IMG/VR virus record: IMGVR_UViG_2974542590_000001
Span: 91,054-155,053 of that record
Origin: a virus
Taxonomy: Duplodnaviria; Heunggongvirae; Uroviricota; Caudoviricetes; Herelleviridae
Length of the DNA: 64,000 nt
Strand: one strand, 5' to 3'
The notes under the pieces are model-generated. The model was not told the DNA's origin. It saw nothing but the letters and a program-made list of their open reading frames with translations, and did no database searches. Numbering within the stretch: the first letter of the stretch is position 1; every line of letters starts with the position of its first letter. The position numbers and the translations under genes are program-made. Positions 29,140 to 48,318 of this stretch are shown piece by piece.

Positions 29140-29904
29140 ATGGACAAGTTAAAAAAGTTTTGGAAAGATAACAAAGAAAATATTGAAAAATTATTCACTT
29201 ACGAATATTATAAAGATGGTTTAACTGGTTGGAACAAATCAGCTCGTGTATTATGGTTTGTCGGAATTGCAGTCCAAGTATTCACCGGTATTATTCTACC
29301 TATGCTACAAGGTCAAGGGTTAACAATGACAGGGTTTACTGCTACAATTGCAGGAATTATTGGATTTACATGTACTGTAACAATTACAATGGGTAAATCA
29401 ATTAATGGTATTTTAGGATTTATTTCTGCTATTTTATTAATCGGTGTAGCAACTGTAACAGGTAACTACAGTGATATTATTATGCAAACTGCTTATATTG
29501 TTTTGTTAGATATTCCTATCATCTTCTCTAAACAATGGAATGAGGGTTTGAAACCTCGTAAAATGCAACCTGTACACATGCTTAAAACATTAGGTCTTAT
29601 TGTTGTTTTCTGGGTTGCTTTATACTTATTAGATACGGTTGTTTTACACTCACCGCAGGCTTTCTTAGATGCAACAAGTGCAATGATTGGTTTAGTTGGA
29701 GCTGTACTGTGTGTGAAAGGCTTTAGAGCACAATATTACTTCTGGACTTTCCAAGGTCTAATGTCAGTAGCTCTATGGATTCAAACAGCTTTACATGGAC
29801 ATGCGGTTTATGTACTAATGCTAACTTACATGTTATATCTAGCAAATGATGTATTAGCATTTACAAACTCTAAATGGTTTAAAAAGGAGGCTCCTCATGC
29901 CTAA
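29140..29904 (+). CDS. pnuC: PnuC-like nicotinamide riboside transporter
   Basis: ~250-aa polytopic membrane protein with N-terminal ...FTYEYYKDGLTGWNKSARVLWF... and Trp-rich TM helices typical of PnuC. Confidence 0.45.
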   Translation: MDKLKKFWKDNKENIEKLFTYEYYKDGLTGWNKSARVLWFVGIAVQVFTGIILPMLQGQGLTMTGFTATIAGIIGFTCTVTITMGKSINGILGFISAILLIGVATVTGNYSDIIMQTAYIVLLDIPIIFSKQWNEGLKPRKMQPVHMLKTLGLIVVFWVALYLLDTVVLHSPQAFLDATSAMIGLVGAVLCVKGFRAQYYFWTFQGLMSVALWIQTALHGHAVYVLMLTYMLYLANDVLAFTNSKWFKKEAPHA

Positions 29905-30136
29905 AGTAACAGTCTACTCAAAAAATGGTTGTGGTCAGTGTACATTCGTGAAACGTATGCTTGAAGGGGAGAAAATTCTCTTTGAAGAACGAAACATTGA
30001 TGAAGACCCAACAGCCAGAGAGTACCTAGTTAACAAATCTGTGACATCTTTACCTTATGTAGAGACATCTACAGGTATTAGTTTTACTGGAGTACAAATT
30101 GGTAAAATCAAAGAAATTAAAAAATCTTACAATTAA
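29897..30136 (+). CDS. nrdH: NrdH-like glutaredoxin
   Basis: KVTVYSKNGCGQCTFVKRML has a CxxC thioredoxin-fold start. 79 aa. Confidence 0.55.
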   Translation: MPKVTVYSKNGCGQCTFVKRMLEGEKILFEERNIDEDPTAREYLVNKSVTSLPYVETSTGISFTGVQIGKIKEIKKSYN

Positions 30137-30305
30137 TTTGTAAGATAGTGTTGACTTAATGACACTCGTAAGGTATACTTCTTCTTGTAACAAAGAGGGG
30201 TATACCTTTTTTATTCGTTGAAAAATTTCATGAAAAATTGTTGACTATACTATAAAGTTTGGTATAGTTAATTATAGTAAAAAATACCTAAAAGGAGGAA
30301 GTAAA

Positions 30306-30617
30306 ATGAATGAAAAAGAACTAGAGCAGTTTAATGCTGAAAGTGCTAGAAAGCTGTATACAGAAGAAAATTATATAAAAGAGCTTAATCATATCTTGCG
30401 TTTAATCAAAGAACAAGCCCCACACAGTAGAGAATTAATTTTAGCTTCAAATAGAAATGCGTTAGCGTGGAAGATGTTTTATAGTCAGGAGCAAGTTCTG
30501 TCAGAGGTTTTGGCAGAAAGAGGTTTTACAGTAAATGCTAAAACGCATAGTTACATCAATGGGGAACCGGTAAGAGTAGTTATAATTTCTTGGGCAAAAA
30601 CAAAGGAGGAGAAATAA
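30306..30617 (+). CDS. hypothetical protein
   Basis: AGGAGGAAG RBS. Confidence 0.5.
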   Translation: MNEKELEQFNAESARKLYTEENYIKELNHILRLIKEQAPHSRELILASNRNALAWKMFYSQEQVLSEVLAERGFTVNAKTHSYINGEPVRVVIISWAKTKEEK

Positions 30618-30708
30618 TATGAAAGCATTTATGGACAATATTCCACTAGCTAATGGAAAGTGGCAAATTAAATAAACAAAAAGTTATTGAATAAATGGAG
30701 GAATTAAC

Positions 30709-31176
30709 ATGATTGAAAAAGTAGGATTTAACATTACGTTATTACCATTAAGATACCGTCCCGAAACAGGAGGTATGGTGTTGCTACACCGAGTTCAAGA
30801 AGGGGTATACGAAATACCTAATGCTTTCTTGGGAGCTACGGATACACCTGAAATGACTGCACACAGTGTTTTAGAGGAGCTTGGTTTAGATGGTCAAGAA
30901 GAATCAATTAGTGCATCAACCATCTTCGGAGAACCTTCTAGAGACCCATCAGGACATAATGTAGCTCAGTTTTACGTTGCTCAAATGAAACAAGATGCTG
31001 AACGTAAAACAGATGAAACAGATAGTGATTATGTATGGTTTGTTGCTACTTCTCACGAAGCAAAAGTAGACCTTTCTACTGATGATACTACAATTATCTT
31101 GTATCGTGATGGTAGAATTACAGGAGATGCAACATTAGCCCTAGACCATAGCAACATGTTTACAACAATTTTCTAA
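30709..31176 (+). CDS. hypothetical protein
   Basis: GGAGG RBS. 155 aa. Confidence 0.5.
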   Translation: MIEKVGFNITLLPLRYRPETGGMVLLHRVQEGVYEIPNAFLGATDTPEMTAHSVLEELGLDGQEESISASTIFGEPSRDPSGHNVAQFYVAQMKQDAERKTDETDSDYVWFVATSHEAKVDLSTDDTTIILYRDGRITGDATLALDHSNMFTTIF

Positions 31177-31249
31177 TACAGTGTTGACTTTATTCCTTAC
31201 AGATGATATATTACTTACTGTAAGGAATATTTTTTTAGGAGGAAATATC

Positions 31250-31999
31250 ATGACCGAAAACTTAACAACTAAATCAGTAGAGGAACTTTCACCAACAGAA
31301 TTTTTCGAACGGGTGAAACAAAGTAAAAAAGAAAACCAAGATGCTGACCTAGACCGTTATTACGCAAATGCACTACGTATGCTAGAGAAAGCAATTAAAA
31401 CGAAGCAAGACCGACAAATATCATTGCTACGTCATCACATTCGAACGATTCAACTAGAAAAAGAAATTCGTGATATGGGTATTACAACCTTTGTATACTC
31501 AGAAGACGTTGAGAATTTTATTGAAAACGTAGAAAATCGCACAGTTAAACTAGCTGACCTTAAAGATTTTCCTCGTGAAATACCGGATGAGGTTGTTCCT
31601 GTAATTGAACGTGTACAAGATAAATTTGACCGTCTGGTTGTCATGTTTACAGACTATACAGATGAAGTAGGTCAACAAGTAGCAAAAGATAGTAGAGACA
31701 AAGACCCAATTTTATTTGGTGTATTCTTAGATGAAACATCAGATTATGTCATGGAGCGTATGTATTTCTTAGCTGACTGGGAAGACGAGTATTGTGATTT
31801 GACTCTTGATAAATTGATTGAAGAAAATAGAGAGCTAACTGGGGAAGAGATTGCTTTTTATTGTGAAACAGTGAACCCTGATGAACTGCTAACACTTGCA
31901 GATAATTACAATGATAAATTAAAACGTACAAATTCTGAGTACAAGGAACCTGAAAAGAAACCTCCTTTCAGTAAAGTGCGTTCATGGCTAGGTTTGTAA
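31250..31999 (+). CDS. hypothetical acidic protein
   Basis: The ATG at 31250 follows AGGAGGAAATATC. The track's 31181 start lies inside the promoter. Confidence 0.5.
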   Translation: MTENLTTKSVEELSPTEFFERVKQSKKENQDADLDRYYANALRMLEKAIKTKQDRQISLLRHHIRTIQLEKEIRDMGITTFVYSEDVENFIENVENRTVKLADLKDFPREIPDEVVPVIERVQDKFDRLVVMFTDYTDEVGQQVAKDSRDKDPILFGVFLDETSDYVMERMYFLADWEDEYCDLTLDKLIEENRELTGEEIAFYCETVNPDELLTLADNYNDKLKRTNSEYKEPEKKPPFSKVRSWLGL

Positions 32000-32000
32000 T

Positions 32001-32630
32001 ATGCAAGGTATAGACTACACACGAGGACGTTTATTCACAAAGAAAAGACGTAAACGTATAACAGATGTTCGGGTGTTAGCAGACCGAGAAGAACGCAATG
32101 TAGTTACTCCGGTAATTAGCCCCTCTGGAACAATTAGTTTTTCTTTTAATTTTGATGGTAATGACCCAGTTGGTGTTAAGGTTAAGAAAAACAAAATAGT
32201 ACTAAGGAAAAGAGTTAAAATAACTCAAACTAAATTGAGGCTTACACCAAAGTCACCTCGTAAGGGTGTAAACTACTATGAACTTAATTATGGAACTGAG
32301 TGCATACGTTGTGGTAGAACCCTACCAGATTTGAGTGTGCTAAATAGGAAAAAAGAGCCGGAGGAGCTGTGTAAGGGATGCAAAAAGTTATTTCCTCCAA
32401 AACCTACTATTTCACGATTAATGCTTATAGGTAATACTGGCGGGGTAAACAAGATTATTGACGTCATAGACAAAAACAAACCATTAGTATTCAAACGTAA
32501 AAAACGGGAAGAAGTCAAGAAGTGGTATGGTTCTTTAAAAGCAATTGCGCAAGAAGAGCACAATAGCTACACAGATTGGGTACGCAGAAAAGGGTACACA
32601 GATGCTATCAATATAGTTAGACGAACATAG
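32001..32630 (+). CDS. basic protein with CxxC...CxxC zinc ribbon
   Basis: CIRCGR....CKGCKK. Confidence 0.5.
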   Translation: MQGIDYTRGRLFTKKRRKRITDVRVLADREERNVVTPVISPSGTISFSFNFDGNDPVGVKVKKNKIVLRKRVKITQTKLRLTPKSPRKGVNYYELNYGTECIRCGRTLPDLSVLNRKKEPEELCKGCKKLFPPKPTISRLMLIGNTGGVNKIIDVIDKNKPLVFKRKKREEVKKWYGSLKAIAQEEHNSYTDWVRRKGYTDAINIVRRT

Positions 32631-32645
32631 AGAAGGAGAATATAC

Positions 32646-33605
32646 ATGAGTTTTGATAATATTTACGCTGACCTTGTGTTAGCTATCAAAGAAAAGGGTA
32701 TTTTGCAAAACCCCGATGAAGTACGAGCACACTATGAAGATGGGGAACCTGCTCCTGCATATGCAATTGAAGGTGTAAGCTTTGAAATTACACCAGACAT
32801 GGGACTGCCAATTCTTAAGAGTAAGTTTGTAGGCTCTAAGTGGGCGTTTACAGAGTTAGAATGGATTTGGCAAGCAATGTCTAACGATGTCAAGTGGTTA
32901 CAGGAACGAGGAGTTACTATTTGGAACGAGTGGGTGCAAGAGGACGGAACAATTGGAAAAGCTTATGGTTGGCAGTTACGTAATAAAGAACGATTTGTTG
33001 CATCAGGCGATGGGATTACGTTAGCTAAAAATCGGTTAGAAGATTGCCCAATTACAAAGTTTGTACCACTGGATGGTTACAATTTAGGTAGTTACCAACC
33101 TTATATAAAGCTGAATCAGGTAGAGGCAGTTATTGCACAGCTTAAAAACAACCCAAGTTCACGAAGAATTATGACTACTTTATGGGATGTCGAAGACTTA
33201 GATGACATGGCTTTAGAGCCTTGTGTATGGGCTACGCATTGGACTGTACAAAATGGTAAGTTAAACCTACATGTTAAACAGCGTAGTTCAGATTGTTGCT
33301 TAGGACTCCCATTCAATGTACTACAGTACCATGCTTTACAGGTAGTTATGGCTAAGGTATCTGGTTTAGAGTTGGGTACAATGTTCTGGAATATCGACAA
33401 TGCACATATCTACGACCGGCATATGGAACGAGCTGTCGAACAAGTAACTGCTCCTATGACAGAGGAAGTTTTAAACGCAGAACCTAAGCTAGTATTACCT
33501 TGGGAAGAAGCTGATATGACTAACTTTTTTGAGTGTCCTCTGTCTGAACTTAAGGTTGAAGGCTACAAACATAACGGAAGATTTAATTACGAGGTGGCAA
33601 TTTAA
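32646..33605 (+). CDS. thyA: thymidylate synthase (ThyA), no intron
   Basis: The active-site Cys pattern ..LEPCVWATHW.. and the ..RSSDCCLGLPFNVLQYHAL.. block are present. Full-length 319 aa. Confidence 0.75.
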   Translation: MSFDNIYADLVLAIKEKGILQNPDEVRAHYEDGEPAPAYAIEGVSFEITPDMGLPILKSKFVGSKWAFTELEWIWQAMSNDVKWLQERGVTIWNEWVQEDGTIGKAYGWQLRNKERFVASGDGITLAKNRLEDCPITKFVPLDGYNLGSYQPYIKLNQVEAVIAQLKNNPSSRRIMTTLWDVEDLDDMALEPCVWATHWTVQNGKLNLHVKQRSSDCCLGLPFNVLQYHALQVVMAKVSGLELGTMFWNIDNAHIYDRHMERAVEQVTAPMTEEVLNAEPKLVLPWEEADMTNFFECPLSELKVEGYKHNGRFNYEVAI

Positions 33606-33898
33606 TGAATACAGCTTCCTCTTTACAAAATCTTTTAGCTATTGCAGAGTCTGCAATTCTACATGAAGAGCGTAGACATCTTGCAAAGAAAGAACGATTA
33701 ATCAAGCAACGAAACGAAATATTAAATGCGCTACAAAAAGCGTGTACCCACCAAGATGAAGACGGGGAAGACCAAGTGGTTCCGTATAATAATCTAGGGT
33801 ACAAAGCCTATAAGTGTGCAATTTGCCAAGCTAAGTTTACCCAATCAGGGTATGACGAAGGCTTACATGTTAAGAAAGAAGGAAATACAGATGAGTAA
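33605..33898 (+). CDS. hypothetical protein with C-terminal Cys pair
   Basis: 97-aa ORF. Confidence 0.45.
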   Translation: MNTASSLQNLLAIAESAILHEERRHLAKKERLIKQRNEILNALQKACTHQDEDGEDQVVPYNNLGYKAYKCAICQAKFTQSGYDEGLHVKKEGNTDE

Positions 33899-34505
33899 AG
33901 ACCCAATGACATGGACAGCAGAAAGATTGTCTAAGGGTAAATATGCTGATTACAAGTTTCCTGTAATGGTAGACGGTATCGGGGTACGTGGAAGTATCTA
34001 CGTCTCCGGTTGCCCTTTTAATTGTTTAGGATGTTACAATAAAAAGGCACAAAACTTTAGTTGGGGAAAAGACTATACCCAAGAAGTAGAAGACCAAATC
34101 CTTAAAGATATTTCACAAGATTATTGTGATGGTATTACTTTGTTAGGCGGAGAACCTTTCTTAAATACACAAGTCCTATTGCCTTTAGCTAAACGTATTA
34201 AATCGGAGCTAACAGGTAAAACAATATGGTCATGGTCAGGTTACACATTTGAAGAGCTTACAGATTCTAACGCTGAAAACTGGGAAGATAAGCTTGAACT
34301 ATTATCTTACGTAGATGTACTCGTAGATGGGCGTTTTGAGCAGGATAAATTCAACCCTAACCTTGTTTTCCGTGGTTCATGGAATCAACGTATCATTGAT
34401 GTACAGAGAAGCCTAGAGAAAAGCTCAGTGGTCTTGTGGGAAGATGGTAAATATCTTGAAGGAGAAGACCATACACCCATTAAATTATTTTCTACAAGAA
34501 AATAA
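33891..34505 (+). CDS. nrdG: anaerobic RNR activating protein NrdG (radical SAM)
   Basis: CPFNCLGCYN is a CxxxCxxC cluster motif. ATG at 33891 after AAGAAGGAAATACAG. Confidence 0.65.
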   Translation: MSKDPMTWTAERLSKGKYADYKFPVMVDGIGVRGSIYVSGCPFNCLGCYNKKAQNFSWGKDYTQEVEDQILKDISQDYCDGITLLGGEPFLNTQVLLPLAKRIKSELTGKTIWSWSGYTFEELTDSNAENWEDKLELLSYVDVLVDGRFEQDKFNPNLVFRGSWNQRIIDVQRSLEKSSVVLWEDGKYLEGEDHTPIKLFSTRK

Positions 34506-34602
34506 AAAAAGTTGTTGACTTGTTATAAAGTGTAAGGTATACTATTATTTGTAAGGGGAAAACTTACACATAAAAAACTAAATATTGGAGGAATTATTTT
34601 TT

Positions 34603-35460
34603 ATGAGCGAGAAGACGTTTAAACGCCTAGTCGTAACCGGAGTGGTTGCAGTTATTTTATTGATTGGAGGTACAATCGGTGCGTTCCGTTTCTTCGAACG
34701 AATCGACAACGGTTATGTAGGTGTACGTTTCTCACCTAACGGTGGTGTTAAATCCGAAGCATTACAGCCCGGTGTTAAATGGGTAGGTATTGACAAAGTA
34801 ACACAATACCCAATCCGTTTACAAACTATCCAAGCTAAAGATGTTGCGGTTTCTACATCTGACGGTAAGAAAACTGTAGTTAACATTAAGTATGACTACA
34901 AAGTAGACCCTAAACAAGCAACTAAAATGTACAAAGAGTTCGGTAACGTAACATCTGAGGATATTGAAAAAGGTTGGTTGAAATCTCGTCTACAAAAGAC
35001 TGCTCGTGAAGTTTACTCTAAGTACAGCTTGCTAGATGTTCTTTCAGGTAAGTCTTCTGAGGTTGAGGGAGAAGTGCTAGCTCGTTTCTCTGATTCAGTT
35101 GAAGGTAAAGGTTTCTTAGTTGAAAACGTAACGGTAGGTGTACCTGACGTTGACCCAGAAACACAAAAATCAATTGATGCAATCATCCGTTCAGGACAAG
35201 AAGCTAAAAAAGCTGAGTTAGATGCTAAAACTCAAAAAACACAAGCAGAAACTGAGGCTACAAAAGTTACTTTGAAAGCCCAAGCAGAAGCCCAAGCTAT
35301 TAAAGACAAAGCTAATGCACAAGCAGAAGCTAACAAGAAAATTGCAGAATCTGTTACGGATGAACTAGTTCGTTACGAAGAAGCACAAGGACGTAAGGAA
35401 CACGGTTGGGTTACTACAATCGTAGGTGACGGACAAGCAATCGTGGACACTGATAAGTAA
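34603..35460 (+). CDS. SPFH/band-7 (prohibitin/HflC-like) membrane protein
   Basis: N-terminal TM, an SPFH core and a C-terminal KAQAEAQA coiled coil. ATG at 34603 after GGAGGAATTATTTTTT. Confidence 0.55.
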   Translation: MSEKTFKRLVVTGVVAVILLIGGTIGAFRFFERIDNGYVGVRFSPNGGVKSEALQPGVKWVGIDKVTQYPIRLQTIQAKDVAVSTSDGKKTVVNIKYDYKVDPKQATKMYKEFGNVTSEDIEKGWLKSRLQKTAREVYSKYSLLDVLSGKSSEVEGEVLARFSDSVEGKGFLVENVTVGVPDVDPETQKSIDAIIRSGQEAKKAELDAKTQKTQAETEATKVTLKAQAEAQAIKDKANAQAEANKKIAESVTDELVRYEEAQGRKEHGWVTTIVGDGQAIVDTDK

Positions 35461-35663
35461 TGGGATTCTTCATTGCTAAATTCTTTATCGCTCTTATTAT
35501 ACTGTTGCTTGGGGGTATAGCTTTCTCTATTGGTTACTACTTTGTCAAGAAAAATAAAGAAGAGCAACCAGAGGAAGATGAGCATGTTAATGTTAAGAAC
35601 ATTAAAGGTAAAGAACACTACACAGATGATTCTTATGATAAAGATGATTGGTGTGATTTTTAG
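35460..35663 (+). CDS. small membrane protein
   Basis: One TM plus an acidic tail. Confidence 0.45.
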   Translation: MGFFIAKFFIALIILLLGGIAFSIGYYFVKKNKEEQPEEDEHVNVKNIKGKEHYTDDSYDKDDWCDF

Positions 35664-39046: not shown

Positions 39047-39622
39047 ATGAGTAAGATTTGGTTCACGTCTGATACACACTTTGGGCAAGAGCGTACTTTT
39101 AAATATTCTATGCGAGGTATGTATTTTGATAATGTAGAACATGCTGATTTAGCTATGATAGAACGGTGGAACGATGTTGTAGATGAAGAAGACACTGTTT
39201 ACCATTTAGGAGATTTCGGTAACTTCGAAGTAGCTAAACAGCTTAAAGGTAAAATTCATTTATTATTTGGTAACTATGAACGGGATGGTAAAGGTGGATT
39301 TATTACTCCGGAACAAGAAAAATATTTTGAATTTGTTCGAAAAGGAGAAGTTGTCACTCTTGTAGACCAAAAATTAGTTCTTGTCCATGAGCCTTCCCAT
39401 ATGAGTTATTCAGAAGATAAAATCAAAGATGGGTACTTTGGCTTATTCGGACATATTCATGAAAAGCAAAAAGTAAAACGTAATGCTCTTAACGTAGGGG
39501 TAGACGTACACAACTTCACCCCAGTTAGTCTGGAGACTGTAGAGTTCTATCGGAATGCCATTCAAAATGTATACAATGCAGAGTGTTTCGATAACTTTGA
39601 ATTGGGAGGGTTGCTAGAATGA
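39047..39622 (+). CDS. calcineurin-like metallophosphoesterase
   Basis: ..WFTSDTHFG.., ..HLGDFGN.., ..GNYE.. and ..GHIHE.. metal-ligand motifs are all present. Confidence 0.6.
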   Translation: MSKIWFTSDTHFGQERTFKYSMRGMYFDNVEHADLAMIERWNDVVDEEDTVYHLGDFGNFEVAKQLKGKIHLLFGNYERDGKGGFITPEQEKYFEFVRKGEVVTLVDQKLVLVHEPSHMSYSEDKIKDGYFGLFGHIHEKQKVKRNALNVGVDVHNFTPVSLETVEFYRNAIQNVYNAECFDNFELGGLLE

Positions 39623-40227
39623 AAACATACGTAATTTCAGACATGCACTTCAATCATCACAATATTTGTGGAGAAGATGGCTTTGTAGAGACAAGGCGCC
39701 GGTTTGCTAATGTAGACGAAATGAATGAATATTTAATTAAGACATGGAATAAACGAGTTCGTCCGGAAGATACTGTGTACCATCTAGGGGACTTTGCTAT
39801 GAACCAGAAACCAAAGGATACCCTAGAGATTCTTCGTAAGCTAAACGGTACCATTATCATGGTTAAAGGTAACCACGACAGTACTAAGCTTTTAAAAACA
39901 ATTAATCGGGATGAGGAATTACGTGAACGAGTATTTTGGAGTGATGTGGGCGTAATACTAAAGCAAGAAAGAAAAATCATCCATTTAACGCACTATCCAC
40001 TTATTATTGGTAGTCGAGGAAACCGAGTAAACTTACATGGACACATCCACGAAATGGCTTATCAAGAACCTAACTTATTAAATGTAGGTGTCGATTCACC
40101 AGAATTAACTTTACATCCTTTTGGGACACCATACACAATTAAAGAGTGTATTGACCTGATTGAAGAAAAGGAAAAGCGTTTCAATGAGTCCGGCTTAACT
40201 TATACGAAACATGGTACAATAGAATGA
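39619..40227 (+). CDS. calcineurin-like metallophosphoesterase (paralog)
   Basis: ..VISDMHFNHHN.., ..HLGDFAMN.., ..GNHD.. and ..GHIHE.. motifs are present. Confidence 0.6.
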   Translation: MKTYVISDMHFNHHNICGEDGFVETRRRFANVDEMNEYLIKTWNKRVRPEDTVYHLGDFAMNQKPKDTLEILRKLNGTIIMVKGNHDSTKLLKTINRDEELRERVFWSDVGVILKQERKIIHLTHYPLIIGSRGNRVNLHGHIHEMAYQEPNLLNVGVDSPELTLHPFGTPYTIKECIDLIEEKEKRFNESGLTYTKHGTIE

Positions 40228-40481
40228 GACCGACATACGAACATGTTTTAGGAAAGAGGTACCGTCCTAAAAAGCGGTACCCTAAATTATTAATGCGAGA
40301 AGTCATTCCAACAAGAGTTTACTATGATTACCCTCGCAGACTTCCTTGGGAACCAATAGACCCTCATGCAGTTAAACACAAATACGTTGAGTTTACATTT
40401 ATGTACGAGAGTAAGCAGGTTACTGAACGATATGATTGGTATGCGTTCTTTCGATATTTTGAGAAAGTAGAGGACGATTAA
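40224..40481 (+). CDS. hypothetical basic protein
   Basis: 85-aa ORF. Confidence 0.45.
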   Translation: MRPTYEHVLGKRYRPKKRYPKLLMREVIPTRVYYDYPRRLPWEPIDPHAVKHKYVEFTFMYESKQVTERYDWYAFFRYFEKVEDD

Positions 40482-41221
40482 TGAGCAAGGAGAAAGCGTT
40501 CGTAGTATCAGATATACATGGTATGTACGATGAGTTTATGGAGTTATTAAAATATTGGAATCGTGAAGAACAAGAATTGGTTCTTTTAGGAGACTATGTA
40601 GACAGAGGTCTCCAATCAAAAGAAGTTCTAGGGTTTGTTTATGAGCACATGGCTTCTGGTGGCACAGCAATTAAAGGGAACCATGACCAGATGTTGTTAG
40701 ATTTCCTTAGTTTTCCTTTGGTACGAGATGCCGATTTTGAGGATTTAAAAGATATATATTCAGTATGGTACAATCAGGGAGGTCGAGAGACTGCTGATTC
40801 TATTCTGGAGGTGAATACAGCTTCTTGGAGTGCCCTAGCGTTACGTATGGAGCTTCTTAGCAAGTCTAACTTAAAAGACACCCTAGAACTGCTAGAACCT
40901 TACTACGAGTTCGGTAACGTGCTATTTGTACATGGTGGTATTCCTAGATGGAGACAACCAGACTGGAAAACAGCAGAAGAACATGAAATGCTTTGGACTA
41001 GACCAAATCCACTTCAAAAGAACGAGACAAGTAAAACTATCATTGTTGGACATACCCCTACAGTGAACTTTCATAAAGGCAATAACTGTGATATTTATTT
41101 AGGAGACCGTACAATATATATTGATGGTGCCTGTGCCTATGGCGGACAGTTAAACGGCATTGTTGTAGATAAAGACGGCAATATTCAAGAGAAATATTTT
41201 GTACCGAAAAAACATACTTAG
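40481..41221 (+). CDS. PPP-family metallophosphatase (PrpE/ApaH-like)
   Basis: ..VVSDIHGMYDE.., ..LGDYVDRG.., ..GNHD.. and ..VGHTP.. motifs are present. Confidence 0.55.
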   Translation: MSKEKAFVVSDIHGMYDEFMELLKYWNREEQELVLLGDYVDRGLQSKEVLGFVYEHMASGGTAIKGNHDQMLLDFLSFPLVRDADFEDLKDIYSVWYNQGGRETADSILEVNTASWSALALRMELLSKSNLKDTLELLEPYYEFGNVLFVHGGIPRWRQPDWKTAEEHEMLWTRPNPLQKNETSKTIIVGHTPTVNFHKGNNCDIYLGDRTIYIDGACAYGGQLNGIVVDKDGNIQEKYFVPKKHT

Positions 41222-41624: not shown

Positions 41625-43265
41625 TTGGATGTGGCAAAAGAATCGAAAACTGTGATAGTACACTATAGAAAACACTGCAAAAATATAAACAGACCACAAT
41701 ATGAGAGTGATTTTACTAAACGTATAAATGAGCTTGAAGCTATCGGCATAGTTGTTCAGGACATTTATTTTTCTAAGTCTAGTGAATCTGTTTATGTAAC
41801 GTTTACCCTAGGAAATCGTAATGAAAACCGTTTAAATTTAAAAGGTAAACGATATATTGGGCAGTTTGCTATTTCGAGTCATGAACGTTTCTATGATACG
41901 ACAATCAGAACATTTAAGACTCAGAAGGCAAAAGATGCAAATGATTTATTTAAACAGATTTTGCAAGAGATGAACACCGCTTTAGCTTATGAAAACAAAA
42001 TCAGTCAGTATGTTGTAACTATTGAGGAACGAGAATTAGAGGCACTTCGTATAATTGATAAACTAGGCAGACAAAAACGTGGGTTAGAGGTGGAGCACGC
42101 AGCTTTTGTTAAGCAAAAGAACTTCCCTGTCTTCTATATGGAGTATGGATATAAACAAATATTAAAACTTATTGAAGATAAAGCAACGAACGCTATGTTA
42201 CTTTCTTTGCGATATAAAGGGTGTATTCAAGATTACAACGAAGGTATCAATAGTCGAGGTAAGGTTACATTAACTTCAATTGGAAAGCAGATGTTATTGC
42301 AATATGGAGAAGACCCGAGTGATACATTATGGAGAGAGTTTTGTCTCCGTAAAACATTTGATTTATGGGATAATGATTTAGATAGCATGGAAGTTGAGGA
42401 AGACACGTCTGCTACTATTGATGTTCCAGTAGATGAAGAATTAACTAAACTAAAAATTTCCGAAGATTGGTATACTGCGTTTGACCTTCTGTTCTATAAA
42501 CTTCAAAAGAAAGAAGCACTAGTCAAGGACGAGAAGTTCTTATGGAAAGAACTTCTAGGTAGTTTTATTGAGTCACATCTACCAGAAACCCAAGAATTTA
42601 TCCATGTAGGATTTGTCCCAAGTAGCTTCTTAACTACTATTTTTATCGGGGAAGACAGCGACCTAGAGGGAGCTACTATATATGGAATCTCTTGTGCAAA
42701 AGAGGTAATAAATACGTCTGACTATATCAGTATTTCTTACTCTGGTAAGAGACCTGTAACCTTCTTAAGTAGCATTGTAGAATGGATAAATGCAGACCAT
42801 TCAAAATACCAAAAATCATTCTCAGAAGATGACTTGCGATGCTATTTACAGCTTAAGTTCCTAGAACAATCAAAGGTTGGTTTAACTACTACAGAGTACT
42901 TCTTAAATAGTGATACTACAATGAAGTTATCTGCACAAGCAATTCCAATTTATATGGAACAACGATTGAAGAAGAAAATAACATATTCTCCGGCTTTAGA
43001 AGACGAAAACATTACAAGAATGTTTAAGTTGTTATGTAAGCTAAGTAAAAATCAGGCAATTATAGCAAACCCTACGGATAAGAAACGGATACGATTAATA
43101 ACAACGGGTAGTTCAGATGCTATCTTCCGTTATGTTGAATCAGAGATGCTATATGTACGAGATAACATCATGTATGAAGACAAAGCAGAGTACCCGATTG
43201 TCCAGGACGTAGAAAAGGGTTTGATTACTTACATTAACGTAGCTTCCTTATTATCTGTACAGTAA
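41625..43265 (+). CDS. large hypothetical protein (546 aa)
   Basis: No recognisable motif. Confidence 0.5.
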   Translation: MDVAKESKTVIVHYRKHCKNINRPQYESDFTKRINELEAIGIVVQDIYFSKSSESVYVTFTLGNRNENRLNLKGKRYIGQFAISSHERFYDTTIRTFKTQKAKDANDLFKQILQEMNTALAYENKISQYVVTIEERELEALRIIDKLGRQKRGLEVEHAAFVKQKNFPVFYMEYGYKQILKLIEDKATNAMLLSLRYKGCIQDYNEGINSRGKVTLTSIGKQMLLQYGEDPSDTLWREFCLRKTFDLWDNDLDSMEVEEDTSATIDVPVDEELTKLKISEDWYTAFDLLFYKLQKKEALVKDEKFLWKELLGSFIESHLPETQEFIHVGFVPSSFLTTIFIGEDSDLEGATIYGISCAKEVINTSDYISISYSGKRPVTFLSSIVEWINADHSKYQKSFSEDDLRCYLQLKFLEQSKVGLTTTEYFLNSDTTMKLSAQAIPIYMEQRLKKKITYSPALEDENITRMFKLLCKLSKNQAIIANPTDKKRIRLITTGSSDAIFRYVESEMLYVRDNIMYEDKAEYPIVQDVEKGLITYINVASLLSVQ

Positions 43266-43340
43266 AAAAGTTACCTAGAGTGTTGACAGATGCTCTGGGT
43301 TTTGATATACTTTAGGTAACAGGTAAGGAGGAACTAAATC

Positions 43341-43604
43341 ATGGCAAGTGGCACAAAGGAAGAATTTGTACAAATCTGTGACCTATTACAGGAGTTGTAT
43401 GACTTAAAAGGACACCACATAAGATTCCATCAGTTTATGTATCATGTTAACCATGAGTTCTATAGACGTATTGGTGTGGACTATGCGTATCATAGAGAAC
43501 TAGGAGCCGTATATGTTCAAGATATGTTTAATATAGAAAATCCAAGGTACATTAATTTTTTACAAAGTGAAATTCAAAAAGCGAAGGAGGAGCAACATGT
43601 GTAA
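43341..43604 (+). CDS. hypothetical protein
   Basis: AAGGAGGAA RBS. Confidence 0.5.
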   Translation: MASGTKEEFVQICDLLQELYDLKGHHIRFHQFMYHVNHEFYRRIGVDYAYHRELGAVYVQDMFNIENPRYINFLQSEIQKAKEEQHV

Positions 43605-43989
43605 TTGGTGTGAGGGTGGAGCATTACTTTATAATTTAGAGGACGAATCCGGAGGTATCGGAGTAGACATAGACCATAATGTACTACGTGTACAATTTGG
43701 CTTCCATAGTTATGGGAATGTTCGTACGACAATGACCGCAGAAGCTAGAACATTTATTAAGTTTTGCCCAATGTGCGGTAAGTACCTTAAGGGAGTATTT
43801 AACATTGGAGATTGGGTTCTCTACTCACCGTCAGGACTTTATACAAGAAATGAACAACTAATGGGAGCTAATTTAATAATTATTGGGTATGATGAAGATA
43901 AACTTAGAGTAGCAGTTCTTAATAAAGACGGAATTAGGGGTGAAGAACATTATTCAGTATCACCAACAGACCTCATTTTAAGACAGTAG
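43597..43989 (+). CDS. zinc-ribbon protein
   Basis: CNWCEG....CPMCG. GAAGGAGGAG RBS. Confidence 0.5.
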   Translation: MCNWCEGGALLYNLEDESGGIGVDIDHNVLRVQFGFHSYGNVRTTMTAEARTFIKFCPMCGKYLKGVFNIGDWVLYSPSGLYTRNEQLMGANLIIIGYDEDKLRVAVLNKDGIRGEEHYSVSPTDLILRQ

Positions 43990-44175
43990 CAAACCGGGCG
44001 TGTCACACTAACGGTATGTATAGGGTGTGTTTATCCTTAGCCCTTACCTAGATAGTAACCTCCGCTGTTAGCGGACAGGTCTAGGTACGAGGCTTTTATC
44101 CGAGTCTAATCAAGTAAGCTTTCAGCTAAGGTGTGTATCTTAGACTCTATTCACGCACACCGGAAAGGAAAATAT

Positions 44176-44622
44176 ATGGATTTAGGAGCAAATGAAACAG
44201 AGAATCGTATTACTCTTCTATTAGACTATACAAAAGACCATCTATACGAAATAGACAATCGTCTCAAGATGGCTTACTATAAACCAGTCTTTTATGATGC
44301 GCAATATGACCAATTGATTATTCGATTACGCTTTTCTATCTATGATAAATACACAGTTGAACGAGTCCTCATTATTGGCAGTAATACCATTGACTATTAC
44401 ATGTTAGCTACTGATGAATATTACCTAGCTAAATATGTAGGTGAAAAGTTACGTGCAGAGATTGACTATTGTTCTTCTCTTGCAGATATGTTTGAACGCC
44501 AATCAGACAAGAAGATTCGGCTTAAACGTAAGTATCAGGAAGTCAAGCGCAACACCCGTGTTTTACCACGTAAATTTAAACCTCATACAGGGAACCAACG
44601 AATGAAAGGGAGAGAGAAATAA
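44176..44622 (+). CDS. hypothetical protein
   Basis: GAAAGGAAAATAT RBS. Upstream, 44000-44130 is a GC-elevated structured leader. Confidence 0.45.
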   Translation: MDLGANETENRITLLLDYTKDHLYEIDNRLKMAYYKPVFYDAQYDQLIIRLRFSIYDKYTVERVLIIGSNTIDYYMLATDEYYLAKYVGEKLRAEIDYCSSLADMFERQSDKKIRLKRKYQEVKRNTRVLPRKFKPHTGNQRMKGREK

Positions 44623-44918
44623 TGTTAAACATGAAAGTATTAGACTACCGCATTACTAGTGATGCAGACAACGTAACCGTAAGACGGGTAGTTCGTAATG
44701 AGAAGGGTGAGATTACCTACAATAAAAAAGGAAATGAAAACACCTCTTTAGTCGGTTACCAAACAAACCTTACCAAAGCGCTACACATGATTCAACGTAA
44801 CTGGGTCTTAGGTGGGAATGGGAAAGAAATTACAACTATCCGAGAATACCAAGAAGCCATTGAAGAAATCACTGAAATCGCAAAACGTGAACTTGATTTA
44901 GACGAAGCGTTTAAGTAG
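44622..44918 (+). CDS. hypothetical protein
   Basis: 98-aa ORF. Confidence 0.45.
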   Translation: MLNMKVLDYRITSDADNVTVRRVVRNEKGEITYNKKGNENTSLVGYQTNLTKALHMIQRNWVLGGNGKEITTIREYQEAIEEITEIAKRELDLDEAFK

Positions 44919-44929
44919 GGGGAGTCACT

Positions 44930-45160
44930 ATGTATAAAGGGTACATTATAGAAGAGAGGGAACTGTACCCCACTTGTCCATTTTGTAAGGAAACTATGAA
45001 AGATGAGGAAGACCTGTATCATTCTGGAATCTATAGTTCCGAGAATACGGAGGAGGGGGCAATTTGGGAAACAACTTGTCCAAATTGTGATAAGGTTTTT
45101 TATGTTAGAACACAGGTTCACTACTCCTATGAAACGTTTAAAGAAGAAGATTGTATTTAG
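44930..45160 (+). CDS. small zinc-ribbon protein
   Basis: CPFCKE....CPNCDK. Confidence 0.45.
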   Translation: MYKGYIIEERELYPTCPFCKETMKDEEDLYHSGIYSSENTEEGAIWETTCPNCDKVFYVRTQVHYSYETFKEEDCI

Positions 45161-45288
45161 GGAAAGGTTTCAATGCCCTAGAGAGATAAAAAATCCCAGT
45201 ATTTACTGGGATTTTTTTATTTAAAGTTGTTGACGTACTGAAAGGTATCTGATATACTATAGGTATAGATAGTTAAGGGGGAGAAAAC

Positions 45289-45771
45289 ATGCTTAAATCA
45301 TCGAATTTAAAACATGGAGACACTATTAAATATTTGTCTAGTACCAATGACAAGTTTATAAAGAACAAAGTATATCTAGTATGGGTAGTTGACCATAGCG
45401 GGATTCCAGTTGTACTATCAGAAGAACAGAACTATGTGTCTGTCATTGATTTAAACCCGCAGAACTGGGAGAGTAGTAAAGGACAAGTAATGGAAAAGAT
45501 TAACTTGAATGAAGTAGTTACTGAACTAGGTGTTAATAAAGATGATACAGAAGAGTATACACGTGCTTTATCTGATACACTACGAGGATATATTCACAGC
45601 GCAAGAGAAGAGCAAGGGTTATCGCAACGGGCATTAGCTACGAAGGCAGGCATTACACAAAAAGCCATTTCTACATATGAAAATGGGTTAACTGTAATTA
45701 GCTTACCATCCTTGTTCAAGATTATGGCTGTGTTAGGTATAGAAGTTACAATTTCAATTCCGGAGGAGTAA
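45289..45771 (+). CDS. protein with C-terminal XRE-type HTH
   Basis: ..LSQRALATKAGITQKAISTYENG... Confidence 0.5.
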   Translation: MLKSSNLKHGDTIKYLSSTNDKFIKNKVYLVWVVDHSGIPVVLSEEQNYVSVIDLNPQNWESSKGQVMEKINLNEVVTELGVNKDDTEEYTRALSDTLRGYIHSAREEQGLSQRALATKAGITQKAISTYENGLTVISLPSLFKIMAVLGIEVTISIPEE

Positions 45772-45773
45772 TA

Positions 45774-46088
45774 GTGACTGTTGTAAATAATACTATACTA
45801 GATAACTTGTCTTTTATTAACATGACAGAACGGGCGTTACTGCTACACAGTTATCTGTACTATGAATTAGATGCAATTAAAATCTCTGACCACCAGTTTG
45901 ACCATCTTATGTATCGAATGGTTGAACTAAAGAAATGGGACGAATTTAAAGAATCAGAGTTCTATGAAGAATTTAAAGACTTCGAAGGTGCTACAGGAAT
46001 GGACTTAGACTATGATAAACCTTTTTGTCGTAAATGGGCACATATATGGGGTCTAGATAAAGATAAAGCAGGAGGAAAGAAAAAATGA
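45774..46088 (+). CDS. hypothetical protein
   Basis: GTG start after GGAGGAG. Confidence 0.4.
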   Translation: MTVVNNTILDNLSFINMTERALLLHSYLYYELDAIKISDHQFDHLMYRMVELKKWDEFKESEFYEEFKDFEGATGMDLDYDKPFCRKWAHIWGLDKDKAGGKKK

Positions 46089-46939
46089 GTAATGAGTCTT
46101 TAGTAGGAAAATGGATGTGTGCAAGTGATACAGATGTGGAAGTTTGGAGAGCTTGTGCTTATTTCGACACCAAAGAAGATGCTATCCATGCAGGTAAACT
46201 AGCTGTAGATGCAATTAGAAATGGAAAAACTTTTGTAGAGGAGATTTGGGAACATGTAGAGGACATTTTAGGTTTTCTTCCAGAAGAACCAATCAACAGT
46301 TTTGTAGTTGGAAGAGTGGCTCCAGTTTACCTTCCTGTAGATGTTACGTCATTATTAGAACAAACCCAAGAAATGATTTATCAAGAGGTTGGGGAAGTTG
46401 CAGATTCTTATTACTTAACGGATGAGATTCCAGAAGACAAACAGGATGAATTACAATCTCTAATCATAGGTTGGTTTGCTAAGAATGGCTATGACTGCCC
46501 ATTTACTAAGATTGTAGATATTGAACCCGTATACATTTCAAGAGATGATTCTTTATATTTAGTTGGTGTACGAGTAGATGTTAGACCATCAGAAGTAATC
46601 GAAGGGGGCTTTACATGTACCACTCGTGTAATGAAAGTCCGAGAAGAAGACTTGAAAATTACTGAGAAACAGATTGAAAACCGTAGTAAAGAGCCAGACT
46701 ATCTGTTTAAAACTCGTGTGCTAAAAAGTGAGTTGGATACACCTCTTTGGGCATTTTGTAAAGATAACATCACAATGTATTCACTAGTGCGGGAAGCATA
46801 TGTAGATTCAAAAGCATCTGAATTTGAAAATAACATTAAAACGTTGCTAGCTTTTCATTATACCGAACAAGCTAACATGTTTAACAATAAAATCAAATCT
46901 CTAAAACTAGGAAAAGAGATTGGAGTGGGTGTGCAGTGA
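46085..46939 (+). CDS. hypothetical protein (284 aa)
   Basis: No recognisable motif. Confidence 0.5.
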   Translation: MSNESLVGKWMCASDTDVEVWRACAYFDTKEDAIHAGKLAVDAIRNGKTFVEEIWEHVEDILGFLPEEPINSFVVGRVAPVYLPVDVTSLLEQTQEMIYQEVGEVADSYYLTDEIPEDKQDELQSLIIGWFAKNGYDCPFTKIVDIEPVYISRDDSLYLVGVRVDVRPSEVIEGGFTCTTRVMKVREEDLKITEKQIENRSKEPDYLFKTRVLKSELDTPLWAFCKDNITMYSLVREAYVDSKASEFENNIKTLLAFHYTEQANMFNNKIKSLKLGKEIGVGVQ

Positions 46940-47319
46940 TGTCAGCAGATGAGGCTCGTAACAAGGTAGCCAACAGGGAACAAGAAATAAAGGAGAAAAT
47001 AGCTCGGAAATCCGCAGACTTCATTAATAATAAAGTACTACCTAGTATCAATAAAACAATAGAACTTGGCGGGTACTCTTGTAGAATTTCTGGTAATGAG
47101 TTAACTGAGCAGGAGCTTACAGCTATTAAAAAGGTACTAACAGCCAAAGGTTATAAAGTAACCATTTGGTCAGAAGAGTCTGTACGCTATGTTTGTGGCG
47201 GTCGCAAAGTGACAGGAAGAGATAGAGGACTAGAAATAACATGGTTTCCGCCAGAACCAGAGCCTGATAAGGTTGGATTACTAACCAAGTTGTATAATAA
47301 AATAACAGGAGGAAACTAA
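46936..47319 (+). CDS. hypothetical protein
   Basis: 127-aa ORF. Confidence 0.45.
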   Translation: MMSADEARNKVANREQEIKEKIARKSADFINNKVLPSINKTIELGGYSCRISGNELTEQELTAIKKVLTAKGYKVTIWSEESVRYVCGGRKVTGRDRGLEITWFPPEPEPDKVGLLTKLYNKITGGN

Positions 47320-47320
47320 T

Positions 47321-47563
47321 ATGAAATACATGGCGTTTTACATTGCTGACTTCTTATACCCAGATGAAAGAATCGGGGACTTATGCTTTTTCTATAATAA
47401 AGACACTGGCATGTTTGAAATGGAGTGTGACCCTGAAACAGCATACGAACCTACCGTTGTCTGCGATATGCCAGAGTTCTTACTGTTTAAAGTTCAAGGA
47501 ACCGAGGAAGAAGGAACAATAAAGCCAGTGGACAAAACTAAATTTTTAGAGGAGATTAAATAA
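47321..47563 (+). CDS. hypothetical protein
   Basis: AGGAGGAAACTAAT RBS. Confidence 0.5.
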   Translation: MKYMAFYIADFLYPDERIGDLCFFYNKDTGMFEMECDPETAYEPTVVCDMPEFLLFKVQGTEEEGTIKPVDKTKFLEEIK

Positions 47564-48318
47564 TGAAACTACGTACACTATTTGGTGGAAATAAAACCGC
47601 AGAAGAACTAGCTAGCCAGATTGCAGAAGTACCTGCAGATACAAACATCATGGTAACAAAATTACCTTTAGACGTGTTCTATGCGTTACCTTTCGAAACA
47701 ACACAGGTTCTCTCTTGGGGGGAAATTATAGATAAAGCAGAGGAATTAGAGGAACCAGATTGGATAGATAACTGGGGAGAAGGAAGCCCTTTCGTATATT
47801 GCAAGTCAAGTCAAACAGCTTTTTACCGTGCAAACCCTGTAGAGAGTGACCTATCCGTGGCAATTACCTCTGCGGGCGTAGCAGACCGAGACATTGTAGA
47901 CGAAGCTTACTTAACTGTATTCTTAAGTGGGTATGTTCCTGTGTCATTTCATGATATTGGTGTAAATGACTTGAAAAAACTAATGGCTTCTACAGATGCT
48001 ATTACAAAAAGTAATGTAGTTGTATCTGTACAAGGATTTGAAGGGGCGTTACCTGTAGTCCTTGCAGGTTTAATTGATTTACCTATTATTGCTGTACCGA
48101 CTTCAACAGGTTACGGTATCTCAGCAGATGGCTACACTGCATTAAACACTGCACTAACTAGTTGCACTTCTGGTATTTCTGTTGTGAATATCAATAATGG
48201 TTTTGGTGGTGCATCACAAGCTGTACGTATACTAGAACAGATAGAAAAAGCTAGAGAAGTCTTCTTTAAAAATGAAGGTACTCAACGTGTAGGGGGAGTA
48301 CAAAATGCCGTTTGTTGA
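47563..48318 (+). CDS. protein with C-terminal PurE (N5-CAIR mutase)-like / LarB-like domain
   Basis: Residues ~150-240 ..VVVSVQGFEGALPVVLAGLIDLPIIAVPTSTGYG...ALNTALTSCTSGISVVNINNGFGGASQAVRIL align by pattern to the PurE block ..VIIAGAGGAAHLPGMIAA.T..PVLGVPV...G.DSL.SIVQMP.G.PV.T.AI...A.NAALLAAQIL. Recall-based and unverified. Confidence 0.4.
   Translation: MKLRTLFGGNKTAEELASQIAEVPADTNIMVTKLPLDVFYALPFETTQVLSWGEIIDKAEELEEPDWIDNWGEGSPFVYCKSSQTAFYRANPVESDLSVAITSAGVADRDIVDEAYLTVFLSGYVPVSFHDIGVNDLKKLMASTDAITKSNVVVSVQGFEGALPVVLAGLIDLPIIAVPTSTGYGISADGYTALNTALTSCTSGISVVNINNGFGGASQAVRILEQIEKAREVFFKNEGTQRVGGVQNAVC

Follow-up and report, generated by a model that had tools for sequence, protein, structure and literature searches.

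A short, solitary LarB-type enzyme in Enterococcus phage EFP01, and its probable independence from the PnuC-like and NADAR genes of the same genome

The 64,000-nucleotide stretch of DNA analysed here, referred to below as the window, is the final 64 kb of Enterococcus phage EFP01 (Herelleviridae, Brockvirinae, Schiekvirus; genome of 155,053 bp), with 100% identity to NC_047796.1 / KY549443.1 over window positions 44000-52000; window positions are obtained by subtracting 91053 from those of the record. A sequence-only reading of this DNA had grouped a PnuC-like transporter, a LarB-like protein and a NADAR-domain protein as a possible NAD+-related module, which would rebuild NAD+ depleted by bacterial defences. 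Our results suggest instead that these genes probably represent three separate accessory functions and not a single NAD+ module, and that only LarB is unusual among them. Family assignments, conserved residues, the order of the genes and their distribution among phages are observations, whereas substrates, transcription units and biological roles are deduced. The transporter and LarB genes are in fact 17.7 kb and about 35 genes apart, belong to different predicted transcription units, and occur independently of each other. Furthermore, no NadR, NRK, NMNAT, Nampt, Prs-like Adps, NadE, LarC or LarE was found by sequence profile in the approximately 70 open reading frames (ORFs) of the window that were scanned, those without a Pfam match not being compared by fold, or in the RefSeq annotation of the entire genome, so that no enzyme leading from nicotinamide riboside (NR) to NAD+ was detected. 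LarB could not rebuild NAD+ either, because its known chemistry consumes nicotinic acid adenine dinucleotide (NaAD), the immediate precursor of NAD+.

In the case of the LarB-like protein, the proposed match of its C-terminal half to the fold used by PurE and LarB survived profile searches, and the relationship to LarB turned out to be stronger than claimed. The protein scored 31.9 bits against the Pfam AIRC family (gathering score 30; residues 146-226) and 160 bits against the NCBIfam LarB model NF033503 (residues 77-225, corresponding to positions 59-208 of the 209 in the profile), and matched the structure of L. plantarum LarB (7MJ0, and also 8SOQ) with E = 4e-29 over residues 98-223, about 50% of which are identical. 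Only the fold is shared with PurE, as the score against the purE model TIGR01162 was 17.2 bits for a cut-off of 149.6. A search of 5.8 billion proteins returned 3929 relatives at E <= 1e-10, including a tight clade of proteins of 225-252 amino acids (aa) that are 48-75% identical to the query across about 90% of its length; beyond this clade, scores fall to those of canonical LarBs, whose alignments cover no more than about half of the query. When the phage clade was compared to canonical LarB profile to profile with hhalign, the two matched with a probability of 100% and E = 6e-57, residues 4-236 of the phage form being equivalent to residues 52-256 of the canonical one.

The catalytic residues of the family are retained. 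Cys201 (in SCTSGI), Glu160 (in GFEGAL) and Asp108 are the counterparts of Cys221, Glu180 and Asp128 of L. plantarum LarB, for which residue roles other than those of Cys221, Ser127 and Glu180 are assigned by conservation only. Across 20 aligned phage and canonical sequences, down to 34% identical, 27 columns are invariant, among them Cys201, Asp108 and the PTSxGYG motif; the NxxNG motif is kept as well, and Glu160 is conserved in at least 90% of the sequences. The position of Ser127 is occupied by Ala107 in the phage protein; our alignment A2 includes seven full-length canonical LarBs, and three of them have Ala there too. Because an engineered S127A LarB is active and favours a dicarboxylated product (PMC13524815), an Ala residue here would, by analogy, be compatible with activity. 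Together, these data describe an N-terminally shortened LarB-type enzyme with its catalytic residues intact and a predicted LarB-like activity.

We acknowledge that some of our observations weigh against reading this protein as an ordinary LarB. Its score of 160 against NF033503 remains below the equivalog cut-off of 175, and the whole phage clade lacks the first 51 residues of the canonical enzyme, which include the invariant D41, R44 and R47. Several positions that are invariant in canonical LarBs are also altered in the clade, namely T128 (to V, I or L), R161 (to K), A179 (to Q) and M181 (to F), and the canonical H160 is variable there. With the N-terminus lost and conserved positions changed, it is possible that the substrate or the activity of the phage form differs from that of LarB proper.

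Within the phage collection, the LarB-like gene is present in 38 records, of which 25 are from Schiekvirus (90-100% identity), nine from Kochikohdavirus (73%), two are faecal contigs, and two are Schiekvirus remnants. Its distribution does not follow that of the transporter. Phages Porthos, phiSHEF16, 113 and iF6 carry a Pnu gene that is 99.6% identical to that of EFP01 and no LarB at all, and in phages 163 (CAJDKA010000002.1, 113243-113332) and vB_OCPT_CCS1 (ON113170.1, 9807-9896), with the same 99.6% identity in Pnu, only the last 30 codons of LarB are left. In the other direction, none of the 60 best Pnu matches comes from the eight Kochikohdavirus records with LarB, and contigs of temperate phages hold LarB and no EFP01-type PnuC. 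This pattern of presence and absence indicates that LarB is a dispensable cassette in a variable spot, not tied to PnuC. Two of the genes that accompany it in EFP01, encoding a solo NLig-Ia domain and a 196-aa protein, persist in LarB-negative phages.

The company that LarB keeps in other phages is just as variable. A 97.5-kb Herelleviridae-like contig (L006) carries LarB followed by a Gad2-family gene and YoqU, with a NADAR gene 6.5 kb downstream. Three temperate siphophage-like contigs of 28-38 kb (L007-L009), seen in 157 index blocks, share the order repressor/Cro, Rha, DUF1351, ERF, LarB, VRR_NUC and terminase, and two more temperate phages with LarB (L010 and L013) are similar to them. 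In another LarB phage (L011) the genes include those for a PolIII alpha subunit, a nucleoside deoxyribosyltransferase, a thymidine kinase and a Mom-like protein; L014 is one more LarB locus. The nearest relative of the L007 terminase, at 72% identity, is that of a Lactobacillus crispatus phage, and when L007 and L006 were compared to isolated phages, no nucleotide match was obtained for the former and a 263-bp match only for the latter. LarB is the only gene common to at least nine phage contexts, and no partner gene emerged when 32 EFP01 proteins were compared by tblastn to the loci that carry LarB. By this search, LarB was the only gene in its vicinity common to EFP01 and L006, and the sole gene common to EFP01 and each of L007, L009, L011, L012 and L013; L010 and L014 gave one weak unrelated match each, and in the Kochikohdavirus locus L034 nothing but LarB was common to both within the 6-kb flanks, with one short match 6 kb off. 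LarC, LarE and LarA were not found within 7-8 kb of LarB in any of the phage contexts examined.

Among these contexts, a single one runs counter to the lack of association between LarB and PnuC. Metagenomic contig L012 (3209-7234) encodes a more distant LarB-like protein of 211 aa, the gene for which is oriented divergently from, and lies 425 bp away from, that of a PnuC with a canonical ligand motif (QWTFWFVYN), with a NUDIX hydrolase and a SocA/Panacea-like gene nearby, and this leaves room for some link between LarB and NAD uptake. The same contig has a TnpB-like gene (229-1512) similar to an IS605 OrfB/TnpB-like gene found in the early region of the window (18809-19960), where HTH_OrfB_IS605, OrfB_IS605 and Cas12f1-like TNB domains were detected.

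In EFP01 the LarB gene is the sixth of seven packed or overlapping genes that encode, in order, a helix-turn-helix (HTH) regulator, the NLig-Ia domain, proteins of 284, 127 and 80 aa, LarB and the 196-aa protein. These would form one predicted operon, running from a promoter-like site (TTGACG-17-TATACT with an upstream TG, 10 of 12 matches) to a strong terminator-like hairpin that starts 8 nt past the end of the 196-aa ORF. The NLig-Ia protein matched PHROG 6466, annotated as DNA ligase, with E = 2e-34, and NCBIfam LigA over residues 8-42 with E = 0.004; 14 of its 15 weak matches in the PDB are to the N-termini of LigA proteins. Compared to E. coli LigA (4GLX), whose residue roles were reported by Sriskanda & Shuman (2002, as cited in PMC9503650), it keeps Y22, D32 and D36, and has H23 replaced by Y and Y35 by F. 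It is thus predicted to be a stand-alone NMN/NAD+-binding LigA domain Ia, devoid of the ligase catalytic module, and had been overlooked in the sequence-only reading. Such solo domains have been found in 81 phages, and Iyer et al. proposed that they sense or shield NAD+ (PMC9503650).

The remaining members of the unit offered fewer clues. The 284-aa protein matched no Pfam, NCBIfam or PADLOC family; its 69 homologues are all at least 86% identical, and an AlphaFold2 (AF2) model built on an alignment of nine such sequences was unusable, with a pLDDT of 35.9. No homologue of the 284-, 127- or 80-aa proteins was found by tblastn beside LarB in other phages. For the 196-aa protein, searches of Pfam (even at E <= 1), NCBIfam, PHROGs and PADLOC gave no family match, and its single-sequence AF2 model (pLDDT 40.8) was equally unusable. 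Forms 38-93% identical to it occur in 22 Enterococcus phage records, some of them LarB-negative, and its gene is a real, fast-evolving one. At the sequence-profile level neither the 284-aa nor the 196-aa protein resembled LarE, LarC or an NMN adenylyltransferase (NMNAT), and no PP-loop SGGxDS motif was seen in them by eye.

The description of the other end of the proposed module as a PnuC-type transporter within a nucleotide-metabolism block was borne out. The protein scored 81.5 bits against Pfam NMN_transporter PF04973 (gathering score 27.3; profile positions 5-173 of 175), 72 bits against NCBIfam TIGR01528 (cut-off 42.45), and E = 1e-64 against PHROG 1880, annotated as PnuC-like, which is also the label already given to it in RefSeq (gp127). 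Its gene lies within a block from about 12.5 to 55 kb in which genes are on the + strand and GC skew is positive, and which holds early/middle accessory and nucleotide-metabolism genes. As read from the sequence, a gap of 17 nt separates it from the preceding gene for a deoxynucleoside kinase (129 bits against Pfam dNK; nearest solved structures being deoxynucleoside / deoxyguanosine kinases, 8PUU with E = 4.5e-23 and 2JAS), and the start of the NrdH-like glutaredoxin gene overlaps the stop codon of Pnu by 8 nt. The gene for NrdD is located just 5' of this pair, and those for ThyA and NrdG come after. NrdD is split in two by an HNH_3 endonuclease gene (25841-26437), part 1 (25127-25657) carrying the ATP-cone and NrdD profile positions 1-47 and part 2 (26582-28237) NRDD profile positions 44-562 (522 bits), an arrangement that looks like a homing-endonuclease or intron-type interruption. 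Given the gene spacing, the promoter-like sites before NrdD (26537-26566) and after NrdH (30151-30179 and 30241-30268), and a 9-bp inverted repeat followed by a T-run 3' of NrdH, the genes for NrdD, kinase, Pnu and NrdH, which are contiguous in EFP01, would be transcribed as one unit.

What this transporter carries is best approached through its neighbour. Pnu transporters are facilitators, and their cargo is trapped by a kinase (PMC5749112); a predicted deoxynucleoside class of the family, PnuN, was described by Rodionov & Gelfand (2005, as cited in PMC7749635). Since the cargo needs a trapping kinase and the adjoining kinase is a deoxynucleoside kinase, we lean towards a PnuN-type role in the uptake of deoxynucleosides, or of related nucleosides, for phage DNA synthesis, in which Pnu would admit the nucleosides, the kinase would phosphorylate and thereby trap them, and the product would feed the deoxynucleoside triphosphate (dNTP) supply. 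The ligand-binding motif of the family in transmembrane segment 6, WxxW(x)3[D/N] (PMC5749112), is also altered in the EFP01 clade, which reads Y199-Y-F-W202-T-F-Q205-G206, that is, YxxW(x)2QG; in 12 sequences of this sub-clade W202, Q205 and G206 are invariant, the first W is replaced by Y or F, and the D/N by Gly. In the unrelated siphovirus VPE25, genes for a nucleoside deoxyribosyltransferase, a deoxyguanosine kinase and a PnuC-like protein follow one another, the kinase sharing 50% identity with that of EFP01 from end to end and the transporter 41%, and several GenBank/UniRef records name the orthologue "NrdR-regulated deoxyribonucleotide transporter, PnuC-like".

Alternatively, the transporter might import NR and represent half of a route similar to NARP3, using the NadR or NR kinase and the NMNAT of the host to raise NAD+. 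This is a possibility that we regard as real yet rather unlikely. It would agree with the TIGR01528 score, above the cut-off of a model that is an equivalog for the NR transporter PnuC, with the label of PHROG 1880, and with the precedent of NARP3, which demonstrates that PnuC-type importers of phages can serve NAD+ restoration. In NARP3, however, the gene for an NR importer adjoins one for a NadR-like NR kinase/NMNAT and each of the two needs the other (PMC13464706), and in EFP01 the genes that flank Pnu encode the deoxynucleoside kinase and the glutaredoxin. The replacement of the D/N of the ligand motif by Gly, the mere 35 bits between the EFP01 protein and the NR-bound PnuC of N. mucosa (4QTN), and the maintenance of the kinase-Pnu pair beside a deoxyribosyltransferase in VPE25 speak against NR as well.

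In spite of these arguments, deoxynucleoside uptake is not without difficulties of its own. In addition to the TIGR01528 cut-off being passed, no NrdR box (ACACWATATATWGTGT, with up to 3 mismatches) was found anywhere in the 64-kb window, even though a phage gene need not keep an NrdR operator. Phages Maenad and WCP30 carry a Pnu gene and no annotated kinase. The bacterial homologues, from Companilactobacillus, Lactobacillus and Fructobacillus, are not located beside dNK or nrd genes; in 16 genomes, mostly of Fructobacillus and Companilactobacillus, no dNK, nrd or nadR gene adjoined a gene of this sub-clade, and these contexts are thus uninformative on the substrate. Two of the bacterial homologues are followed by QueT, a hint that the cargo might be some other nucleoside-like molecule, and the substrate of the EFP01 sub-clade as a whole is a prediction. 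The sequence-only reading had named as a refutation of its module that PnuC might be a generic permease by phylogeny; this holds in part, in that the Pnu sub-clade of this protein has an altered motif and, in two phage lineages that are unrelated, is found coupled to a deoxynucleoside kinase. In practical terms, whenever a "PnuC" label is encountered in a phage of Gram-positive bacteria, the partner kinase should be checked before the gene is read as part of NAD+ salvage.

A separate observation concerns the closest bacterial homologues, from Companilactobacillus sp. DQM5 (L004) and Lactobacillus sp. YT155 (L005), where genes for the PnuC-like protein, QueT, a Tad2-like protein (DUF2829, 74 aa) and an SDR protein follow in this order. 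This operon is preceded at about 5925-5995 in each locus by a conserved leader of about 75 nt, GTTGAAGAAGGACAAC..AAACCTTGGGTT..CGAGGGGATTCTAAAT..GAGGGAGATTTAGA, for which Rfam searches did not return any match, even at E <= 10. The leader may be an unclassified riboswitch-like element, and the arrangement gives a hint of what this Pnu sub-clade might transport, namely a nucleoside related to queuosine.

Going back to LarB, the known enzyme carboxylates C5 of NaAD via a cysteinyl-pyridine adduct and hydrolyses the phosphoanhydride to yield P2CMN and AMP (PMC13524815, PMC11796402). By homology, the phage form would bind a pyridine (nicotinic acid) dinucleotide, its Cys would attack the ring, C5 would be carboxylated, and cleavage of the phosphoanhydride would release the same two products. 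With no LarC or LarE found in the phage, and no conserved partner in the phages examined, it would act alone, and its net effect would be to drain NaAD or a related NAD-type molecule, which is the opposite of rebuilding NAD+. Because the catalytic residues are kept, the gene is single and mobile, its sites are in accessory regions (with Gad2 nearby in L006), and it has been naturally lost in sister phages, we infer for the phage LarB an accessory or conflict role that is host-specific and has NaAD, or a related NAD-type molecule, as its target. Such gain and loss between near-identical phages, combined with conserved catalytic residues, is indeed the signature expected of a host-specific accessory or counter-defence gene. 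We know of no phage function that touches the NaAD node, the last precursor of NAD+, on which the phage form is predicted to act. In L006 (8001-9936) the Gad2-family gene, of the Gabija anti-defence type, is three genes downstream of the LarB-like gene and YoqU is near, placing LarB in an anti-defence neighbourhood in that phage.

More specifically, and with considerably more doubt, the clade might be a new phage conflict enzyme that alters or cleaves a pyridine dinucleotide, be it NaAD, NAD+ or an NAD-derived immune signal. NAD+-using defences would then be starved or poisoned, or their signal destroyed, and NLig-Ia might assist as an NAD+ sensor or shield. If so, this would be a non-reconstitutive intervention on NAD+, distinct from NARP1-3, sponges and phosphodiesterases.

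A different possibility, which appears improbable to us, is that LarB is an auxiliary metabolic gene providing P2CMN to the LarE and LarC of the host, so that, during infection or in the lysogen, more nickel-pincer cofactor becomes available to lactate racemase or related enzymes. The close relationship to LarB with catalytic residues kept would fit such a role, as would the occurrence of the clade in phages of Lactobacillales, the order in which the Lar system was discovered (the L. crispatus affinity of the L007 terminase being an example), and in Kochikohdavirus Ef2.3 the gene is annotated "LarB: implicated in lactate racemization". Nonetheless, LarC, LarE and LarA are missing from the surroundings of LarB in the phage contigs examined, and the first 51 residues of the canonical enzyme are gone. 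Moreover, LarE and LarC of L. plantarum are thought to be single-turnover proteins (PMC11796402), which implies that extra LarB alone would hardly lift cofactor output, and virulent Herelleviridae would presumably gain little from lactate racemisation.

It is even harder to believe that the protein is a decayed or non-enzymatic remnant, such as a binding protein or a sponge. Its score below the curated LarB cut-off, the missing N-terminus, the altered canonical positions, and the deletion of the gene in some sister phages could all be taken in this sense; the invariance of the catalytic Cys and Asp and of the PTSxGYG and NxxNG motifs in distant sequences, with the Glu nearly as conserved, cannot easily be reconciled with it, nor can the 49-70% identity that the clade maintains across very different phages, which argues for purifying selection on an active site. 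The role of LarB as an accessory or conflict gene is directly testable, as natural LarB-positive and LarB-negative sister phages, being deletion variants, are available for use as controls.

Some records already name the LarB-like gene LarB, P2CMN synthase, nickel-pincer cofactor protein, AIR carboxylase or "circadian phase modifier". Our literature search for a phage LarB found no paper discussing one, and a 2022 systematic survey of viral NAD+/ADP-ribose systems (PMC9503650) mentions neither LarB nor PnuC. Given that the gene is annotated in some records, and that PnuC-like and NADAR genes are already annotated and of known kinds, the novelty is best described as a short and solitary phage LarB clade. 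Its importance lies in the fact that phages of lactic acid bacteria, both virulent and temperate, carry a shortened form, spreading on its own, of a family known only from the synthesis of the nickel-pincer cofactor.

Regarding the third gene, a NADAR protein had been said to follow LarB, and a NADAR gene is indeed nearby. The ORF that follows immediately, however, encodes the 196-aa protein, whose identity as NADAR was ruled out, as both Pfam and a phmmer search with E. coli YbiA point to the 172-aa protein listed in Table 1 (161 bits against PF08719, gathering score 35.1; PDB 8BAU, E = 9.5e-15). The latter is encoded 3.8 kb downstream, outside the span of the proposed module, with eight ORFs, including RtcB, and the terminator-like site in between, and both RtcB and NADAR fall in later units than LarB. 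The only PADLOC match we obtained was this NADAR protein (candidate defence-component model PDC-M42C, E = 1e-38), which means that the domain is catalogued on the bacterial defence side as well. NADAR is encoded by 27% of myoviruses and by 48% of medium and jumbo phages (PMC9503650), and a phage NADAR is known as AdfN, an anti-DarT factor of T4-like phages (PMC11825919). By analogy, the EFP01 protein would be an independent enzyme that removes ADP-ribose, ordinary in large myoviruses. Three adjacent ORFs of about 75 aa located past this gene (52787-53464) were considered as possible paralogues, and this was rejected.

That the three proteins cooperate as a new module against NAD+-depleting defences, a "NARP4" that would be a fourth NAD+-restoring pathway, is therefore very improbable in our view, because no enzyme converting NR, NMN or ADP-ribose to NAD+ was found in the scanned ORFs or genome annotation, LarB destroys NaAD, the genes are in separate predicted units, those for PnuC and LarB are far apart and uncoupled in their presence in both directions, and NADAR is frequent in myoviruses regardless, and these facts outweigh the affinity of all three families for NAD-type molecules, the NAD+-binding NLig-Ia in the predicted LarB operon, the adjacency of LarB to PnuC with a NUDIX gene near in L012, and the distance between LarB and NADAR in L006, which is much like that in EFP01 and can be attributed to ordinary synteny among related Herelleviridae. 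What may still count against full separation is that NLig-Ia, LarB and NADAR lie within 6.9 kb and may form a loose NAD/ADP-ribose "conflict" neighbourhood.

Table 1. Positions in the window of the genes and sites discussed, with the evidence for each
Feature	Position	Strand	Evidence or remark
NrdD, split by HNH gene	25127..28237	+	dNTP-supply block context
Deoxynucleoside kinase, 273 aa	28301..29122	+	Pfam dNK; candidate trapping kinase
PnuC-like (Pnu family) membrane transporter, 254 aa	29140..29904	+	PF04973, TIGR01528, PHROG 1880
NrdH-like glutaredoxin	29897..30136	+	Pfam Glutaredoxin 48.9 bits
Promoter-like site before the seven-gene unit	45230..45258	+	consensus match only
HTH_3 (Cro/C1-type) regulator, first gene of the unit	45289..45771	+	Pfam HTH_3 53.3 bits
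Putative solo NLig-Ia, 104 aa	45774..46088	+	PHROG 6466, LigA N-terminal matches
284-aa protein, Schiekvirus-restricted	46085..46939	+	PHROG 34873/1672 (function unknown)
Two small proteins, 127 aa and 80 aa	46936..47563	+	function-unknown PHROGs only
Short LarB-type enzyme (predicted), 251 aa, EFP01 gp161	47563..48318	+	NF033503, 7MJ0
196-aa protein, not NADAR	48305..48895	+	no family match; RefSeq leaves unannotated
Terminator-like hairpin, end of the seven-gene unit	48904..48929	+	10-bp stem, 6-nt loop, TCTTTTTATC tail
RtcB RNA ligase, separate unit between LarB and NADAR	49165..50409	+	Pfam RtcB 201.7 bits
NADAR-domain protein, 172 aa, gp167	52099..52617	+	PF08719 161 bits

Two other features of the window are worth recording. 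Seven tRNA genes (Arg-TCG, Trp, Thr-TGT, Lys-CTT, Lys-TTT, Arg-ACG and Ser-GGA) are located at 14815-17357 and 21089-21175, a stretch that RefSeq leaves unannotated, and together with RtcB they could provide tRNA replacement or repair against anticodon nucleases. There are also three closely spaced genes for calcineurin-like metallophosphoesterases (39047-39622, 39619-40227 and 40481-41221), whose arrangement is kept in L006.

When compared to known systems, the gene set of EFP01 differs from NARP1 and NARP2, as the sequence-only reading had correctly noted, since neither of the corresponding pairs (Adps with Namat; Nampt with Nmnat) has its families represented in the scanned ORFs or in the genome annotation, and it is unlike NARP3 as well. 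The likeness to NARP3 of Escherichia phage TrudiRoth (Bas30_86/87) consists of a Pnu transporter directly beside a potential trapping kinase; in EFP01 this is a deoxynucleoside kinase and not a NadR-like protein, no NMNAT was found, the ligand motif is altered, and the hosts are Lactobacillales on the EFP01 side and Enterobacteriaceae on that of NARP3. PnuN is a closer parallel, in that a Pnu protein is linked to ribonucleotide reductase and deoxynucleoside kinase genes and that record labels match, a likeness of gene linkage and of labels; EFP01 departs from it by having no NrdR box and by its nearest bacterial homologues not being beside dNK or nrd genes. Like AdfN and other viral NADARs, the EFP01 protein is a single-domain NADAR in the early/accessory region of a large myovirus, even if its neighbours include neither NAD+ salvage genes nor ADP-ribosyltransferases. 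The solo NLig-Ia is the same stand-alone domain of about 100 aa described in other phages (PMC9503650), with no NAD+-ligase catalytic module in the EFP01 annotation, and differs by the H23 and Y35 substitutions and by sharing a predicted operon with a LarB-type gene. Finally, with respect to the canonical LarB of L. plantarum, the phage clade has a variable insert between the two sub-domains and is encoded singly, never with LarC, LarE or LarA in the contexts examined, whereas the fold and the catalytic domain are the same, the N-terminal GxxKT...TR sub-domain is present in the phage protein as well, and Cys221, Glu180, Asp128, PTSxGYG and NxDNG are common to both.

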